A DNA stretch of 64,000 nt, taken from a bacterium. Lineage in GTDB: Bacteria; Electryoneota; Electryoneia; Electryoneales; Electryoneaceae. Location of the stretch: NCBI GenBank assembly GCA_963675295.2, contig CAXXKJ010000002.1, positions 3,744,001 through 3,808,000 of the forward strand. The letters run 5' to 3'. Positions 3,622 through 24,092 of this stretch are shown piece after piece. Made by a program: the position numbers and the translations under genes. The notes under the pieces are model-generated. The model saw only the letters and a program-made list of their open reading frames with translations, was not told the origin of the DNA and ran no database searches. Every line of letters begins with the position of its first letter. Position 1 is the stretch's first letter.

Positions 3622-4591
3622 CGTAGTACAGGCGTTGAACACGCATCAGCGGTTCCTCGTGACGACTCATCAGAATCCGGACGGCGACGCGGTGGGCTCT
3701 CTGTTGGCCATGGCTCACCTGTTGCGTGCCGAGCTGGAGAAGTATGTCGTCGCCGTGCTCCCCGACCCGTTGACCAAACGATACCAGTTCCTGCCCGGCC
3801 TGGACACGCTTGTAGCTCCGGCCGAAGCGGCGGACATGGGACCGTATGACGCGATCATCACCGTGGACGTGAGTACGCCCACCCGTATTGGGAAGGTGTA
3901 CGAGCTGATCACGGAGTCGATGACGCGGATCAATGTCGACCATCACGTGACGAATCCCCGCTCGGACGATGTCGTCTGGGTCGAACCGGAAGCGTCCGCG
4001 ACCTGCGAAATGATGGTTGACCTGTACGAAGAGATGAACGTCAAGCCTACACCTGACGTTGCGACGGCGATGTACACCGGAATCATTACCGACACTGGCC
4101 AGTTCGCGTTCAACGGCACCACCGCGAAGGCGATCTGTGCCGCGTCCAAGCTGGTAGAATCGGGCGCGGAGTTCGAACGTGTCGCCCGCGAAGTGTACCA
4201 CAAGACCGACGTTGCGATGGTGCGCACGCTGGGTAACGTGCTGAACCGGATGGAGTTGCACGACGAGGACCGCATTGCGGTGACGTGGATGGAACGCGAA
4301 GAACTGCCTGTCGATCACGAAGGCTTTGTCAATCACCTGCTGGACATTGAGACCGTCGAAGTCGCGGCCTTGCTGCGTCCGTTGGACACCGGGCAGTGGA
4401 AGATTTCCCTGCGTAGCGCCGGTCTGGTTGACGTCACCTTCATCGCGAAGCAGATGGACGGTGGCGGCCATCCGATGGCTGCCGGTGGAACCCTGCCGGC
4501 GACCGATGCCGGCCTGGCAAAACAACGCGTGGTCGATCTGTGTCTGGCTGCGTTGCAGAATGCACGTGAGGCGGGTGCTGCACGTGCCTGA
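3608..4591 (+). CDS. nrnA: DHH/DHHA1 nanoRNase / pAp phosphatase
   Basis: HQNPDGDA, DHH, TDTGQF, SLRS and GGGH motifs. Confidence 0.92.
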   Translation: MPLSDVVQALNTHQRFLVTTHQNPDGDAVGSLLAMAHLLRAELEKYVVAVLPDPLTKRYQFLPGLDTLVAPAEAADMGPYDAIITVDVSTPTRIGKVYELITESMTRINVDHHVTNPRSDDVVWVEPEASATCEMMVDLYEEMNVKPTPDVATAMYTGIITDTGQFAFNGTTAKAICAASKLVESGAEFERVAREVYHKTDVAMVRTLGNVLNRMELHDEDRIAVTWMEREELPVDHEGFVNHLLDIETVEVAALLRPLDTGQWKISLRSAGLVDVTFIAKQMDGGGHPMAAGGTLPATDAGLAKQRVVDLCLAALQNAREAGAARA

Positions 4592-5327
4592 AGCCAGTGA
4601 TCAGCGGAGTGGGATCCTGCCAGTCCCGGACGGGGCCTGGATCCTGATTGACAAACCTACGGGCATGACGTCGTTCGACGTTGTCGCGCGAGTACGCCGT
4701 GTTACCGGAATCAGGAAAACCGGACACGCCGGCACGCTCGACCCGATGGCGACCGGCCTGCTGGTCGTCGGTGTCGGCAAGGCGACCAAGCTGCTCGGCG
4801 AAGGCTTGACCGGTGGCAAGACGTACGAAGCCGTCGCCACGCTCGGGCTGGCATCTCCGACGCATGACCGTGATTCGGACAAGGTGCTGACCGTCAAGAC
4901 GATCGAGTTTTCGCGCGATCAGGTCGAGACGGCACTACAGCAGTTGGCGGCGCGGACCAAGCAGACTCCGCCGCTAATGTCAGCGCTGAAGGTCAAGGGG
5001 CAGAAGTTGCACAAGGTTGCCCGTCGTGGCTGGTGGTTACCGCGTGACCCTCGGCCGGTGGATCTTGAAACATTGACCGTGCTGGACTATGACGCACAAA
5101 CTGCGTCGGTCCGGTTTACCGTATCGGGTGGCGGTGGAACGTATGTCCGCTCGCTCGTGCGGGATCTGGGGATTGAGCTTGGCGTGCCGGCCGCATTGAC
5201 CGAGTTACGGCGTGTGGCCGCCGGTCCCTACAACATTGAGCAGTGCATTCCGCTGGAGAGCCTGGAGCAGCGGTGGGGGGAGTTTACACAGAGTCGTGGG
5301 TTTCCGTCGGACGAATCTACAGGATGA
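4584..5327 (+). CDS. truB: tRNA pseudouridine(55) synthase, short form
   Basis: DKPTGMTSFDVV, GHAGTLDPMATGLL and GTYVRSL motifs. GTG start at 4584 overlaps the nrnA stop. Confidence 0.93.
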   Translation: MPEASDQRSGILPVPDGAWILIDKPTGMTSFDVVARVRRVTGIRKTGHAGTLDPMATGLLVVGVGKATKLLGEGLTGGKTYEAVATLGLASPTHDRDSDKVLTVKTIEFSRDQVETALQQLAARTKQTPPLMSALKVKGQKLHKVARRGWWLPRDPRPVDLETLTVLDYDAQTASVRFTVSGGGGTYVRSLVRDLGIELGVPAALTELRRVAAGPYNIEQCIPLESLEQRWGEFTQSRGFPSDESTG

Positions 5328-6274
5328 CCGCCGCAGAGATGGATGTCTACCGCTACGGGGAAGAACGGATTCCGCATGTCGCTGAAGCGACCGTGACGAT
5401 CGGAACATTTGATGGTGTCCACCTCGGTCACCACCACCTGCTGCAGGAAGTGCTGAACGGGCCGCATCCGACCGTGGTCACGTTCGATCCGCACCCGCGG
5501 CACGTGCTGTCGACCGGACCGAACCGGCTGCAGATTCTGACTCCAACTGAGGAGAAGCTGCGCAAGCTGGCAAAACTGGGCATCGAACGGGCGATCATCA
5601 TCCCGTTCAACAAGGAAATCGCGGGCCTGAGCGCGGAAGCGTTCCTGCGCGAAATCCTGGTGAATACGGTCGGCATGAAACGGCTGGTGGTCGGCTTCAA
5701 TCATTCGTTCGGCCGCAACCGTGAAGGCAATATCGAGTTCATGAAGTCGCGGGCGGATGATTACGGCTACGAACTCCGTGTCATCAGCGCGCATGAAGCG
5801 GATGCACTGGCGGTCTCAAGCACCAGGATCCGCATGTCGTTGGAAACTGGCAAATTGAACGACGCCAACCGTTTCCTCGGCGAATACTACCGTACTCACG
5901 CCCGTGTGATCGAGGGCGAGGGACGTGGGCGTGACCTCGGCTACCCGACGGCGAACCTGGTCTTTATCGACGAAGACCAGTTGCAGCCCGGCGAGGGAGT
6001 CTATGCGGTTCGTTTGGGCACCGATGACGGGGAGTGGTATGACGGCGTCGCCTCCATCGGACGAAAGGAAACGTTTGGCGACCACTACGGCATCACCGTT
6101 GAGGTGCATGTCTTTGATCATCAATTAGACTTGTATGGCCAGGAAATCTGGGTTGAATGGATCGAGTATCTGCGTGGACAGGAAGCGTTCGATTCGGCGG
6201 AAGCGTTGATCAAGCAGATGGATGAGGATTCAATGCGAGCGCGGGAAATTCTTGTAAAAGACAGTAAAAGATAG
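5324..6274 (+). CDS. ribF: Bifunctional riboflavin kinase / FAD synthetase
   Basis: GTFDGVHLGH, SSTRIR, GRDLGYPTAN and EVH motifs. Confidence 0.96.
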   Translation: MTAAEMDVYRYGEERIPHVAEATVTIGTFDGVHLGHHHLLQEVLNGPHPTVVTFDPHPRHVLSTGPNRLQILTPTEEKLRKLAKLGIERAIIIPFNKEIAGLSAEAFLREILVNTVGMKRLVVGFNHSFGRNREGNIEFMKSRADDYGYELRVISAHEADALAVSSTRIRMSLETGKLNDANRFLGEYYRTHARVIEGEGRGRDLGYPTANLVFIDEDQLQPGEGVYAVRLGTDDGEWYDGVASIGRKETFGDHYGITVEVHVFDHQLDLYGQEIWVEWIEYLRGQEAFDSAEALIKQMDEDSMRAREILVKDSKR

Positions 6275-6303
6275 GCAAAGAGAGTAAAAGACAGGAAAAG
6301 ATA
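6254..6303 (+). repeat. Left arm: five 10-nt units
   Basis: gtaaaagaca gtaaaagata ggcaaagaga gtaaaagaca ggaaaagata; contains the ribF stop codon. Confidence 0.9.
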
Positions 6304-6327
6304 AAACAAAAAACATTAGAGTAGATT

Positions 6328-6684
6328 ATGCGTGATCACAAAGAAATAAAAGCTTGGCAACTATCGGACGACTATATCATAAAAGTATATTCTATTACAA
6401 AACAGTTTCCACCTGATGAAAGATATGGCTTGGTATCGCAGATGCGTAGGTCTGCTATGTCTATCCCGACAAATATTGTCGAAGGTTGTGCACGTTCTAC
6501 GAAGCAAGAGTTACTGAGATTTCTGGATATTTCTTATGGATCAGCCAGAGAACTGGAATATCAAGTCAATGTGGCAGGCAGGTTGGGATATCTGCCAGAT
6601 AATTCAAGAGAGAAACTAGAGCATGATATTGAAGAGATCGTACGCGTTTTAAAGGCGTTGATTGCATCGTTACGTCGAAAGTAA
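6328..6684 (+). CDS. Four-helix bundle protein (23S rRNA-IVP / TIGR02436, Avd-like fold)
   Basis: AWQ...FPPDERYGLVSQMRRSAMSIPTNIVEG...RFLDISYGSARELEYQ signature; AT-rich codon use unlike its neighbours. Confidence 0.93.
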   Translation: MRDHKEIKAWQLSDDYIIKVYSITKQFPPDERYGLVSQMRRSAMSIPTNIVEGCARSTKQELLRFLDISYGSARELEYQVNVAGRLGYLPDNSREKLEHDIEEIVRVLKALIASLRRK

Positions 6685-6693
6685 CAGGCAGTG

Positions 6694-6734
6694 CTATCTT
6701 TTACTTTCTTTGCCTGTCTTTTACTTTCTTTTAC
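6694..6734 (-). repeat. Right arm: inverted copy of the 10-nt array
   Basis: Reverse complement matches 6254-6294 at 37/41 positions. Confidence 0.9.
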
Positions 6735-6787
6735 TTTTTCATAGAGAAACAAACGATAGATTGCAGCACAAGTAAGGAGACGGAAAA

Positions 6788-7057
6788 ATGCCTTTGACCA
6801 AGGACCAGAAGGCAGAGATCATCAAGAAGTACGGCCGTGACGAGAACGACACCGGTCGTGCCGAGGTACAGGTTGCGTTGATGACTGAACGCATTCGTGA
6901 GTTGACGGAACATTTCCGTGATCACAAGAAGGACCATCATAGCCGTCGTGGTTTGTTGATGCTGGTAGGTAAGCGTCAGCGTCTGCTGCGCTACCTCAGG
7001 GAGCAGGACGTCGAACGGTATCGTACGCTGATTAAGGAGTTGGGAATCCGTCGGTAA
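6788..7057 (+). CDS. rpsO: 30S ribosomal protein S15
   Basis: [16 protein letters not shown]...[12 protein letters not shown] motif; AAGGAG Shine-Dalgarno. Confidence 0.98.
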
Positions 7058-7106: not shown

Positions 7107-9299
7107 ATGGTATTTCGCAGAGAGATTGAGCTGGGTGGACGAACCCTCTCAGTCGAAGTAGGCAAAGTCGCCAAGCAGTCGGATGGTGCCGCGTGGGTGC
7201 AGTACGGCGACACCATTGTCCTCGCCGCGGTGAACTCGAAGAAGGAACGGTCGGAAAACACCGATTTCTTCCCGCTCACCGTCGACTACCGCGAGAAGAA
7301 GTATGGTGGCGGCAAGGTGCCGGGTGGGTTCTTCAAGCGTGAAGCCCGTCCGCACGACAAGGAAACATTGATCGCCCGCATGACCGACCGTCCCCTGCGG
7401 CCGCTGTTCGCCAAGGGGTACTATCACGAGACGCAGGTTCTCTTGAACGTGTATTCGCACGACCAGGAGAACGAGGGTGATATCCTCGGTCAGATGGGTG
7501 CCGCGATCGCGTTGCTGATCTCGGACATCCCGTTCCAGACCCCGGTCGCCACCGTGCGTATCGGCCGTCTGGAAGGCGAACTGGTCATCAACCCGACCAT
7601 CCAGCAGAGCGAAGAATGTGACCTGCTGCTGCTCGTCGCTGGCACCGAAGATGCCATCGCGATGGTCGAAGGCGAAGCGAAGGAAGTCAGTGAGGACGCG
7701 TTCCTCGAAGCGATTGATGTCGCGCACAACGAAATCAAGCGCCTGGTCGAGTTCCAGAAGGAATTCGTCAAGGAGCTTGGCAAGCCGGAACGTGAATGGG
7801 AACCGGTTGTCACCACGGAAGAAGTGGCGGCGGCGGTGAAGGAGCTGGTTGGCGACCGTGTCAACGAGCTGATCACGATTGCGGACAAGACTCAGCGCAA
7901 GACGCGTCAGAAGGAAATCAAGGTCGAGATCCGCGAGGCGTTGGCTGAGAAATTCCCGGACCAGGAAAAGCAGATCGGTTGGGCGCTTGAGGATATCGTC
8001 AAGAACGCCATGCGCAGCAAGGTAATTGCTGACAAGAAGCGGATCGACGGCCGTGAGCCGCACGAAATCCGCCCGATCAGCGTCGAAACTGGCACGCTCC
8101 CGCGTGCGCACGGCTCCTCCCTGTTCACTCGTGGGCAGACCCAGGCGCTGGGTTCCTGCACGTTGGGCACCAAGATCGACGAACAGAAGATCGACGGTCT
8201 CGAGGGTGAATACTGGAAGACCTTCATGCTGCATTACAACTTCCCGCCGTTCTCGACGGGTGAAGTGAAGCGCATGATGGGCCCGGGCCGCCGTGAGCTC
8301 GGCCACGGCCACCTCGCGGAATGCGCGCTCAAGGCGACGCTTCCGGACTGGGATGATTTCCCGTACACCATCCGTATCGTCTCGGAAGTGCTCGAGTCGA
8401 ACGGCTCGTCGTCGATGGCGACGGTCTGCGCCGGTTCGCTGGCGTTGATGGACTGCGGCGTTCCGGTCAAGAAGTCGGTCGCGGGCATCGCGATGGGCTT
8501 GATCAAGGAAGGTGATGACTTCGTGGTGTTGAGCGATATCCTCGGTGACGAAGATGCGCTGGGCGACATGGACTTCAAGGTCGCGGGTACCCGTGACGGC
8601 ATCACCGCATTCCAGATGGACATCAAGATCGCCGGCATCTCGAAGGAGATCATGGCGAAGGCGTTGGAGCAGGCTCAGGCCGGCCGGTACCACATCCTCG
8701 ACATCATGGATTCCGTGATGCCGAAGCATCGTGACACCATCTCCAAGTACGCCCCGACGATCATCAACACCTCGATCGATCCGGAATACATCGGCATGAT
8801 CATCGGCCCCGGTGGCAAGATGATCCGTGCACTGCAGACGGATTACGGCGTCAACATCGAGATCGATGACGACGGCACGGTCAGCATCTCCTCCACCTCG
8901 CGCGAGGCGGCGGAAGCGGTTCTTGGCATCATCAAGAACATGACCCGTGAGCCGGAAATCGGTGAGGAGTTTGATGCGAAGGTCGTCAAGATCGTCGACT
9001 TCGGCGCGTTCGTCGAACTGTTCCCGGGCAAGGAAGGTCTTGTCCACGTGTCCGAGCTCGAGTGGAAGCGTGTCGACAAGGTGACCGACGTGCTCAACAT
9101 GGGCGACACCGTGCGTGTGAAGCTGGTCAGCAAGACGCCGGAAGGCAAGCTTGACCTGTCACGCAAGGCCCTCCTGCCGAAGCCGGAAGGTTACGTGGAA
9201 CGCGAAAAGCGTCCCCCGCGTCCGGGTGGCGGCGGTGGCCGTGGTGGCAACCGTGGTGGCGGAGGCAACCGTGGCGGTGGCGGCGGTCGCCGGCGTTAG
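7107..9299 (+). CDS. pnp: Polyribonucleotide nucleotidyltransferase
   Basis: FFPLTVDY, RRELGHG, ESNGSSSMA and GDMDFKVAG motifs; KH and S1 domains; RGG-rich tail. Confidence 0.98.
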   Translation: MVFRREIELGGRTLSVEVGKVAKQSDGAAWVQYGDTIVLAAVNSKKERSENTDFFPLTVDYREKKYGGGKVPGGFFKREARPHDKETLIARMTDRPLRPLFAKGYYHETQVLLNVYSHDQENEGDILGQMGAAIALLISDIPFQTPVATVRIGRLEGELVINPTIQQSEECDLLLLVAGTEDAIAMVEGEAKEVSEDAFLEAIDVAHNEIKRLVEFQKEFVKELGKPEREWEPVVTTEEVAAAVKELVGDRVNELITIADKTQRKTRQKEIKVEIREALAEKFPDQEKQIGWALEDIVKNAMRSKVIADKKRIDGREPHEIRPISVETGTLPRAHGSSLFTRGQTQALGSCTLGTKIDEQKIDGLEGEYWKTFMLHYNFPPFSTGEVKRMMGPGRRELGHGHLAECALKATLPDWDDFPYTIRIVSEVLESNGSSSMATVCAGSLALMDCGVPVKKSVAGIAMGLIKEGDDFVVLSDILGDEDALGDMDFKVAGTRDGITAFQMDIKIAGISKEIMAKALEQAQAGRYHILDIMDSVMPKHRDTISKYAPTIINTSIDPEYIGMIIGPGGKMIRALQTDYGVNIEIDDDGTVSISSTSREAAEAVLGIIKNMTREPEIGEEFDAKVVKIVDFGAFVELFPGKEGLVHVSELEWKRVDKVTDVLNMGDTVRVKLVSKTPEGKLDLSRKALLPKPEGYVEREKRPPRPGGGGGRGGNRGGGGNRGGGGGRRR

Positions 9300-23780: not shown

Positions 23781-23944
23781 GGCAGGGTCTCGTCATGTGT
23801 GGACGCGGCAACGGTCAACTCTGGCTTGCTCCGCACAACAGATCTTCGCGGTTGCGCAAACGTGTCGTGCCGGGTATGCAAAAGCTACGGCACGCTTCGT
23901 CGAATTGCCCATACGACGACAGGCCTTGGGGGGAGGTTACAGAA

Positions 23945-24092
23945 TCAGTAGTCAGTAGTCAGTACACTGTCCTCAGTGGATAGTCAGGTAGTCATCCTGA
24001 CGCGCCGCAGGCAGGAGAAGGATCCCTCTTCATCAGTGGTCAGTGGTCAGTTATCAATTACTCATCACTCATAACTCATCACTCACCACTCG
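23945..24092. repeat. 7-nt periodic arrays surrounding a GTCATCCTGA...AGGATC element
   Basis: tcagtag x2 tcagtac; tcagtgg tcagtgg tcagtta tcaatta; ctcatca ctcataa ctcatca ctcacca. Confidence 0.85.

Follow-up and report, generated by a model that had tools for sequence, protein, structure and literature searches.

The closest described counterparts of the element reported here are the intervening sequences (IVSs) of bacterial 23S rRNA, which occur in Leptospira and others and, in Coxiella burnetii, in helix 45, where the IVS carries the S23p gene. In the Coxiella IVS, inverted repeats at the two ends make up a 28-base-pair stem in whose middle RNase III cuts have been mapped, and two or three tandem GACAGAT heptamers, depending on the strain, lie upstream of the S23p open reading frame (ORF), according to the available portions of PMC4990558. 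Here we examine a 64,000-nucleotide stretch from the genome of a bacterium of the Electryoneaceae (GenBank assembly GCA_963675295.2, contig CAXXKJ010000002.1, positions 3,744,001 to 3,808,000, forward strand; hereafter the window), in which a gene of the same protein family is enclosed by two periodic, mutually inverted arms at the junction of ribF and rpsO. We favor, with moderate confidence, the interpretation that positions 6254-6737 constitute a selfish insertion cassette analogous to the ORF-bearing 23S rRNA IVSs, with arms that pair in the operon transcript, a stem that is cut by RNase III, and a protein that binds the repeat units.

The cassette resembles these IVSs, as far as they are described in the accessible text of that source, in having a PF05635-family protein encoded in the loop, terminal inverted repeats that would close a long stem around the ORF, and short tandem repeats in the 5′ arm whose copy number varies among strains. 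Both are also sporadic among relatives and lack a mobility gene; here, 2 of 30 junctions are filled. However, the cassette lies between two protein genes of an operon rather than within a 23S rRNA helix, and its unit is 10 nucleotides long compared to 7 in Coxiella. In addition, purifying selection acts on its gene, in contrast to the Coxiella ORF, which reportedly is decaying and not expressed, and the RNase III cutting demonstrated for rRNA IVSs is a prediction for the cassette.

Other systems share parts of this arrangement. Repetitive extragenic palindromic (REP) sequences and REPINs are dispersed extragenic repeats found after genes, and they are accompanied by a few copies of a gene for a REP-associated tyrosine transposase (RAYT), each flanked by inverted repeat copies; these transposases carry a catalytic motif. 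The genome studied here (designated G000) likewise combines dispersed post-gene repeats with a few gene copies flanked by inverted copies, but the PF05635 protein is a 118-residue helical bundle with no recognized catalytic domain, and the repeats are tandem arrays of many unit types rather than single palindromes. Heptameric simple sequence repeats (SSRs) offer another comparison. G-rich units of the types GGGAATC and GGGGA(C/T)T occur in Xanthomonas and Nostoc, with 70 to 75 convergent inverted heptamer pairs per genome in Xanthomonas, and tandem heptanucleotides of Calothrix are cited in the same paper (available portions of PMC4692102). The terms “S23,” “intervening,” and “helix bundle” do not occur in the paper, so no link to PF05635 is drawn there. 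G000 resembles these genomes in its over-representation of short, mostly 7-nucleotide intergenic repeats (336 heptamer arrays, mostly by gene ends), but its PF05635 copies are all enclosed by arrays, and their units are not of the G-quadruplex type. Finally, the diversity-generating retroelement (DGR) protein Avd (PDB 4DWL) has a related four-helix-bundle fold, a relation drawn in the available part of PMC10053308. In contrast to Avd, the cassette protein scores below the Avd model cut-offs, and G000 carries neither a DGR reverse transcriptase nor template and variable repeats. A literature search, with subscription journals mostly outside its reach, returned no account of inverted tandem arrays around PF05635 genes other than in rRNA.

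Upstream of the cassette is ribF, which encodes FAD synthetase/riboflavin kinase (5324-6274, + strand, as are all features described for this locus; Pfam FAD_syn, 146.7 bits, and Flavokinase, 133.1 bits), with an uncertain start codon in a frame open from 5243. The left array (6254-6303) comprises five 10-nucleotide GTAAAAGAYA units with a purine-rich sense strand, for which Tandem Repeats Finder (TRF) reports 4.8 copies at G000 C2:3750254-3750301. The ribF ORF stops within unit 2/3 of this array, which supplies its last six codons (VKDSKR) and the TAG; that the array provides the final codons and stop of ribF had been stated in the initial annotation of the window. An A-rich leader (6304-6327) connects the left array to the start codon of a 118-codon gene (6328-6684, GC content 0.40), whose product is a four-helix-bundle protein of the PF05635/TIGR02436 (IVP/S23p) family. 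The right array (6694-6737) has about four units that are the reverse complement of the left unit, and its sense strand is pyrimidine-rich. It is followed by rpsO, encoding ribosomal protein S15, with its own Shine-Dalgarno sequence upstream (6788-7057; Pfam Ribosomal_S15, 128.8 bits). GC content drops to 0.35-0.44 within the cassette, compared to about 0.6 in its flanks, in agreement with the earlier description of an AT-rich gene placed between ribF and rpsO.

The pairing segments of the two arrays (6254-6294 and 6694-6734) are 41 nucleotides long and 399 nucleotides apart, each has a direct 10-nucleotide periodicity, and 37 of their 41 positions (90%) are complementary. The four mismatches fall at arm positions 9, 19, 29, and 39, and therefore at position 9 of every unit, which is also the position that varies among the units inside each arm. 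By our own count, only 14 of the 101,270 possible placements of four mismatches in 41 positions put all of them at one unit position. Read as RNA, the mismatches are C·U, U·G, G·U, and C·A, of which two are G-U pairs. This geometry had been proposed from the letters of the window, and every element of it is reproduced. The arm alignment score is 62, compared to a maximum of 31 and a 99th percentile of 26.9 (the threshold used below) among 309 displaced pseudo-genes placed in 84 loci. A 521-nucleotide RNA (6235-6755) is predicted to fold with −142.1 kcal/mol (z −3.67), with the arms paired in both the minimum free energy and the centroid structures, so the suggested stem of about 40 base pairs can form in both predicted folds.

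The enclosed protein matches PF05635 with 117.2 bits (cut-off 33.8) over profile positions 1-105 of 106 and TIGR02436 with 117.9 bits (cut-off 24), which establishes its family membership. It also matches PDB entries 2gsc (E 3.9e-25, five chains) and, likewise by sequence, 2rld. The title of 2gsc, as cited in the available text of PMC4990558, describes five four-helix bundles, and by homology the cassette protein is presumably pentameric. Between G000 and its congener G001, whose protein is 92% identical, nonsynonymous divergence (dN) is 0.041 and synonymous divergence (dS) is 0.309, and the resulting dN/dS of 0.13 indicates purifying selection. The 118-residue bundle is the sole ORF of the cassette, where no transposase, integrase, or nuclease domain was found, and the idea that the element has no transposase of its own therefore stands. 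A search of 50,697 phage records gave no match, and plasmids gave 38 records, mostly from Nostocales. Defense function was considered as well, and PADLOC gave no hit for the protein.

The distribution of the cassette among relatives reveals its history at this junction. We searched 31 genomes, found 30 rpsO loci, and located rpsO, ribF, and the four-helix-bundle gene on each of them. The cassette is present at this site only in G000 and G001. In two further congeners, G002 and G003 (RibF 73% identical), ribF lies 70-80 nucleotides from rpsO with no cassette, and in 25 further relatives the distance is 60-340 nucleotides, again with no cassette. At the remaining locus (L101), rpsO lies 435 nucleotides from the contig start, with ribF out of view and no cassette. 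Thus, ribF and rpsO are normally adjacent (60-340 nucleotides apart in 27 of the 28 cassette-free loci), and an empty site in relatives, which the initial annotation proposed looking for, exists in 28 of 30 loci. The G002 ribF gene is longer by about 20 codons, and its stop codon overlaps the rpsO ribosome-binding site, while the ribF tail in the cassette genomes is encoded by the array (ILVKDSKR* in G000 and ILVKK* in G001).

The right arms of G000 and G001 are identical over 41 nucleotides. The left arm of G001 departs from that of G000 by entire units and has lost a GGCAAAG unit that matches the right arm. Between these genomes, dS is 0.31 for the cassette gene, 0.39 for ribF, and 0.18 for pnp. 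Because the value for the cassette gene fits those of the flanking genes, the cassette has been inherited vertically since it was gained. A single gain, in an ancestor shared by G000 and G001, therefore placed the cassette at the ribF 3′ end and replaced the tail of the gene. The proposal of a discrete cassette without a transposase that entered a junction empty in relatives is borne out. No direct repeat that could represent a target-site duplication is seen at the outer ends of the arms in either genome; the empty sites, 27% diverged in RibF, are too distant for a filled/empty comparison to bear on such a duplication. Similarly, no clean insertion breakpoint emerges, with the empty ribF-rpsO sites too diverged and whole spacers differing between G000 and G001 at paired sites. 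Unit-like words occur at the empty sites of G002 and G003, where chance and remnant look alike. In another relative, G007 (L091), the ribF-rpsO spacer is 340 nucleotides long and has CTGCGGR-type heptamers right after the ribF stop codon but no four-helix-bundle gene; this could represent either an array without relation to the cassette or a remnant.

G000 carries six PF05635 genes, and all of them have inverted periodic arms. Their units are CAGTGNT, GAGGTRT (twice), ATGGTCT, GGGCTCA, and the 10-nucleotide GTAAAAGAYA unit at ribF-rpsO. The six copies split fliI|fliJ, trkA|trkH, uvrB|purD, an SDR gene and an exonuclease gene, a PD40 protein gene and an unnamed ORF, and ribF|rpsO, and in every case the flanking ORFs have the same orientation. 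The other five copies thus also lie between protein-coding ORFs, with Pfam matches for 9 of their 10 neighbors; of the six sites, five have Pfam support on both sides, and the sixth has no Pfam match downstream.

This arrangement extends well beyond the genus. We scored the flanks of 84 PF05635 genes, composed of the six G000 copies and those of 80 loci from many phyla (two genes had no flanks), and 51 of them exceed the 99th percentile of the displaced controls. Periods of 7 or 8 predominate, and period 10 occurs only at ribF-rpsO. Both of the cyanobacterial plasmid copies examined have arms as well, with the unit TTAGCTG in Calothrix and GGGAACA in Nostoc. Thus, the expectation that homologs possess flanking inverted periodic arrays holds for all six copies in G000, for 51 of the 84 genes across phyla, and for both plasmid copies. 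In a Pfam-supported hand tally of the neighbors at loci L007-L044 (147 of 302 candidate neighbor ORFs scanned), 33 cases had both neighbors called: 20 are co-oriented with both, 5 with the upstream neighbor only, 6 with the downstream neighbor only, and 2 are antisense. Both antisense cases, which run against both neighbors, come from a single gene context, and there is kinship among some of the co-oriented ones as well.

As a side observation, the PF05635 gene at L126 in G003 has composite arms in which GGCTATA heptamers are interleaved with the decamer (GGAAAAGATA) of the ribF-rpsO cassette arms, and its protein is about 53-55% identical to the ribF-rpsO cassette protein.

Among 18 cassettes of the genus and family, the consensus of the left unit differs from the reverse complement of the right unit at zero or one position (at two positions once), and where they differ, it is at the position with the lowest purity inside the arrays. 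A single free base in each unit, as suggested for ribF-rpsO, is therefore a recurrent property of such cassettes. The uvrB-purD site shows how the arms change together, with the unit TGAGGTG in G000 and G001, TGAGTTG in G002, and TGAGCTG in G003, and both arms shifted jointly. At the SDR/exonuclease site, the mismatch stays at one fixed unit position in G000, G001, and G003. Because units differ at no more than about one position and both arms change together, pairing outside one degenerate position is maintained even as units change between species. In contrast, the suggestion of a five-unit binding site matched to a pentamer is unsupported, because an arm can have anywhere from 2 to 23 units, often with unequal numbers in the paired arms of a cassette.

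The arms are not private to the PF05635 genes. A search of the whole G000 genome with TRF (at least three copies) yields 336 arrays of period 7, 7 of period 8, 20 of period 10, and 4 of period 11. Long stop-free stretches span 89% of the genome, and roughly one in two heptamer arrays is located outside them. Arrays of unlike units often adjoin one another and fill whole spacers. The 335 usable heptamer arrays form 80 unit classes, and 330 of them join one network when a single mismatch is allowed. Relative to a crude gene call and within 120 nucleotides, 232 heptamer arrays follow stop codons and 87 precede start codons. The purine-rich 9/10-nucleotide family, which includes the ribF-rpsO arms, is strongly polar, with 18 arrays after stop codons that have the purine strand as mRNA sense compared to 2 with the pyrimidine strand; only 2 members precede a start codon, and 9 lie inside called genes. 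Given this polarity, the left arm at ribF seems to sit where members of the family usually do, and the inverted right arm is the special feature of the cassette. The arms are members of a genome-wide population that includes gene-less arrays, a conclusion that goes beyond the initial annotation.

Inverted pairs are rare in this population: TRF arrays of the same unit form an inverted pair within 1.5 kilobases seven times, and three of these pairs are cassettes. The units of cassette arms rank 4, 6, 9, and 19 among the 80 gene-less classes, a rank sum reached in 631 of 100,000 random draws; for each cassette, the best among several variants of the unit was taken, a choice that favors the result. 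In 100 kilobases each, four genomes without the gene have 1, 2, 2, and 0 arrays of period 7 or 8. The counts are 5, 1, 7, and 6 for four that carry the gene, with an additional period-14 array in one of them, and 4-16 per 100 kilobases for G000. Array density thus follows the presence of the gene only loosely, as a trend. The heptamer arrays show no polarity by a “NAG” profile of moderate information content (124 versus 108; 5.2 bits for the profile compared to a maximum of 3.5 in 20 random sets).

Several individual arrays illustrate this population. At 2846-2945 of the window, gene-less CTGCGGR and then ACTGANN arrays fill the spacer between two ORFs on the + strand; the upstream ORF ends with TGA/TAG just before the arrays, the next ATG is at about 2952, and the ACTGANN unit is that flanking the fliI|fliJ cassette. 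Another intergenic region of the window (23940-24090) has CAGTAGT, CAGTGGT, and ACTCATC arrays with irregular sequence between them. Elsewhere, a conserved, GC-rich, REP-like hairpin of about 30 nucleotides recurs between heptamer arrays (G000 C1:246660, C1:248890, and C2:4413180), and another hairpin (G000 C2:3951120) matches many places in G001.

Cassettes are also lost and altered. PF05635 matches number 0-15 per genome and are present in 23 of the 31 relatives, several with stop codons. At G000 C2:1949380-1949475, the gene is gone, and the remnants of its arms fold as a short hairpin; the same site has the gene in G003 and G007 and a pseudogene in G001. At sites shared by G000 and G001 (L001/L132, L003/L131, and L006/L127), synonymous divergence of the cassettes is 1.6-1.9 or saturated, compared to 0.47-0.66 for the flanks; the values of 1.6-1.9 come from the uvrB and exonuclease sites. 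The fliI|fliJ cassette proteins share 73% identity, compared to 93% for the neighbor. All 19 copies examined have a GC content of 0.38-0.54, whereas that of the genome is about 0.58. This high divergence and low GC content are compatible alike with replacement, with faster mutation, or with selection that favors a low GC content. At the exonuclease site, the G002 unit is GAGACGA and the nearest relative of its protein is located elsewhere, and G000 retains a GAGACNA array outside the current right arm. Between G000 and G001, entire spacers differ; for example, one G001 cassette spans a spacer from the stop codon to 9 nucleotides before the next ATG, where G000 has 138 nucleotides of other repeats.

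In the mechanism that we propose, the cassette would have no promoter of its own and would be read through from the ribF transcript. A scan of the + strand within the cassette found no sigma-70-like promoter or terminator-like site, although such a scan is weak and the promoter type of the host may differ. The arms would close into a stem of about 41 base pairs with one unpaired base every 10 nucleotides. Host RNase III, whose gene is present in the genome, probably cuts this stem, by analogy to the homologous rRNA IVSs, and cutting would leave ribF, cassette, and rpsO-pnp RNAs as separate pieces and the operon unharmed. Among four public sequencing runs, available as contigs, no joint crosses the cassette, and the one RNA run reaches part of rpsO and a 40-nucleotide stretch resembling an array. 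Pairing would be insensitive to the gain or loss of units because of the periodic structure of the arms. The protein probably binds the repeat units, and would do so in its own arms as well as in gene-less arrays of related units after stop codons elsewhere, which would aid the upkeep or spread of arrays.

Several observations weigh against this interpretation. The ribF stop codon is inside the stem, and terminating ribosomes must therefore melt it. Selection for an RNA stem would predict an excess of G-U among the mismatches, but across 38 arm pairs there are 47 G-U compared to 60 A-C mismatches (27 compared to 40 without three gapped pairs). Because G-U does not exceed A-C, the arms have no sense-strand RNA signature, and their complementarity could be kept by gene conversion between arms or by DNA pairing rather than by RNA. 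There are also antisense copies (L037, L041, and one on a Calothrix plasmid). The genome has 80 heptamer unit classes and only six PF05635 genes. Furthermore, two proteins with 73% identity at one site are flanked by units with differences at 2 of 7 positions, and unit distance does not significantly track protein distance among the cassettes whose units could be used (47, from 80 proteins; Spearman −0.06, reached by 237 of 2,000 permutations, with noisy unit calls).

The expectation that units co-vary with protein clade accordingly finds no significant support in this automated test, in which units are closer only among pairs at least 60% identical. It is retained in one subfamily, which keeps its unit type across at least seven phyla: among the 25 genes closest to the cassette gene, AGRCTR-type tandem words occur in an arm of 18, compared to 4 of the remaining 53 (Fisher p = 1e-8, for a pattern picked after seeing the data and kin that are not independent). 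The ribF-rpsO cassette itself departs from the AGRCTR-type unit.

One possibility is that the cassette is an element at the level of DNA, whose arms serve as terminal inverted repeats or form a hairpin or cruciform, which is gained and lost by recombination, array slippage, or host hairpin enzymes, and for which the RNA stem is a by-product. We regard this as a real possibility, albeit somewhat unlikely. The arms look strand-symmetric by the mismatch counts, and they evolve by turnover of units rather than by point substitution, as seen in the left arm of G001 next to an identical right arm. Entire spacers are swapped between close genomes, three sites shared by congeners have other units and divergent proteins with the elevated dS values given above, an older array of another unit persists outside the right arm at the SDR/exonuclease site, G001 assemblies break at arrays, and antisense copies exist. 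However, the cassette has no transposase, integrase, or nuclease domain, no target-site duplication is visible at the arm ends, and a bias of 20 to 2 toward the direction of host genes is not obviously needed by an element acting purely as DNA. Processing as RNA is, moreover, what is described for the homologous rRNA IVS (available text of PMC4990558), in line with the IVS-like cassette that we prefer.

Purifying selection on the gene could instead mean that it serves the host, for instance as a binder of post-stop arrays that stabilizes mRNA 3′ ends or acts in translation or termination, with the arms as autoregulatory sites. This would suit the position of arrays after stop codons, both for the heptamers (232 to 87) and for the 9/10-nucleotide family (18 of the 20 stop-adjacent arrays lie within 120 nucleotides after a stop codon with the purine strand as sense), as well as the high ranks of arm units among gene-less classes, and a pentamer, as solved for a close relative, would be a natural reader of repeats. 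We nonetheless find such a domesticated regulator decidedly improbable. Its gene is patchy, with 8 of 31 relatives lacking a match and pseudogenes common, a scar marks a site of its loss, and low GC content persists in all 19 copies. In addition, neither G000 nor G001 has a cassette with the most abundant class of unit, and array density tracks the gene only loosely. The chance that the locus is a DGR remnant, in which the gene is an Avd that acted with a reverse transcriptase and the degenerate position records adenine-type mutagenesis, seems close to negligible. It draws on one hypervariable position per unit, on the likening of PF05635 to Avd (PDB 4DWL compared with 2GSC, available part of PMC10053308), and on a weak similarity that stays below the model cut-offs (PF22296, bAvd, 34.1 bits versus 40; NF033474, DivGenRetAVD, 31.8 bits versus 80). 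There is no template/variable repeat pair, and this reading fails because the only reverse transcriptase found in the genome, which is 92.8% complete and may lack a piece, belongs to a retron of the St85 type with its effector, about 235 kilobases away. That retron (St85/type II-A pair; L133, G000 C2:3511000-3520000, positions 3765-5788 on the minus strand) encodes a 319-residue reverse transcriptase and a 295-residue NDT-type effector.

If the protein of the IVS-like cassette does read repeat units, a broader speculation follows: PF05635 pentamers might be the missing partners of the heptamer SSRs and short tandemly repeated repetitive (STRR) sequences scattered through many bacterial genomes. 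Each subunit would read one unit with one base left free, and arrays of the protein's own unit type would arise, persist, or spread with its help, in a manner similar to RAYTs and REPs but without a nuclease domain, with rRNA IVSs being copies that landed in rRNA. We consider this extension improbable as it stands.

Some features downstream of the cassette deserve mention. An Rfam search returned a single result, a sub-threshold match to the S15 leader at 6726-6844 (23.3 bits versus a gathering score of 39.5), which begins within the right arm. If this match is real, then the cassette adjoins the autoregulatory leader of rpsO. A long ORF 3′ of rpsO (7107-9299) is taken as pnp, for polynucleotide phosphorylase, judged from its translation alone. 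Its tail (9225-9299) is rich in glycine and arginine (GGGGGRGGNRGGGGNRGGGGGRRR), and TRF calls a 9-nucleotide repeat there.

PF05635 is a very large family for which we met no function in the literature consulted, and over-represented bacterial heptamer repeats were called unstudied in 2015 (available portions of PMC4692102). The locus described here joins testable features of both, including a gene under selection, mutable arm units, a defined free base, and congeners in which sites are empty, filled, or scarred. Should RNase III act on the arms, such cassettes would cut operon mRNAs at set points, such as fliI|fliJ, trkA|trkH, and ribF|rpsO, and this cutting would bear on operon annotation and on models of expression. 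If the protein reads arrays, then this would provide a first function for PF05635 and an origin for the arrays.

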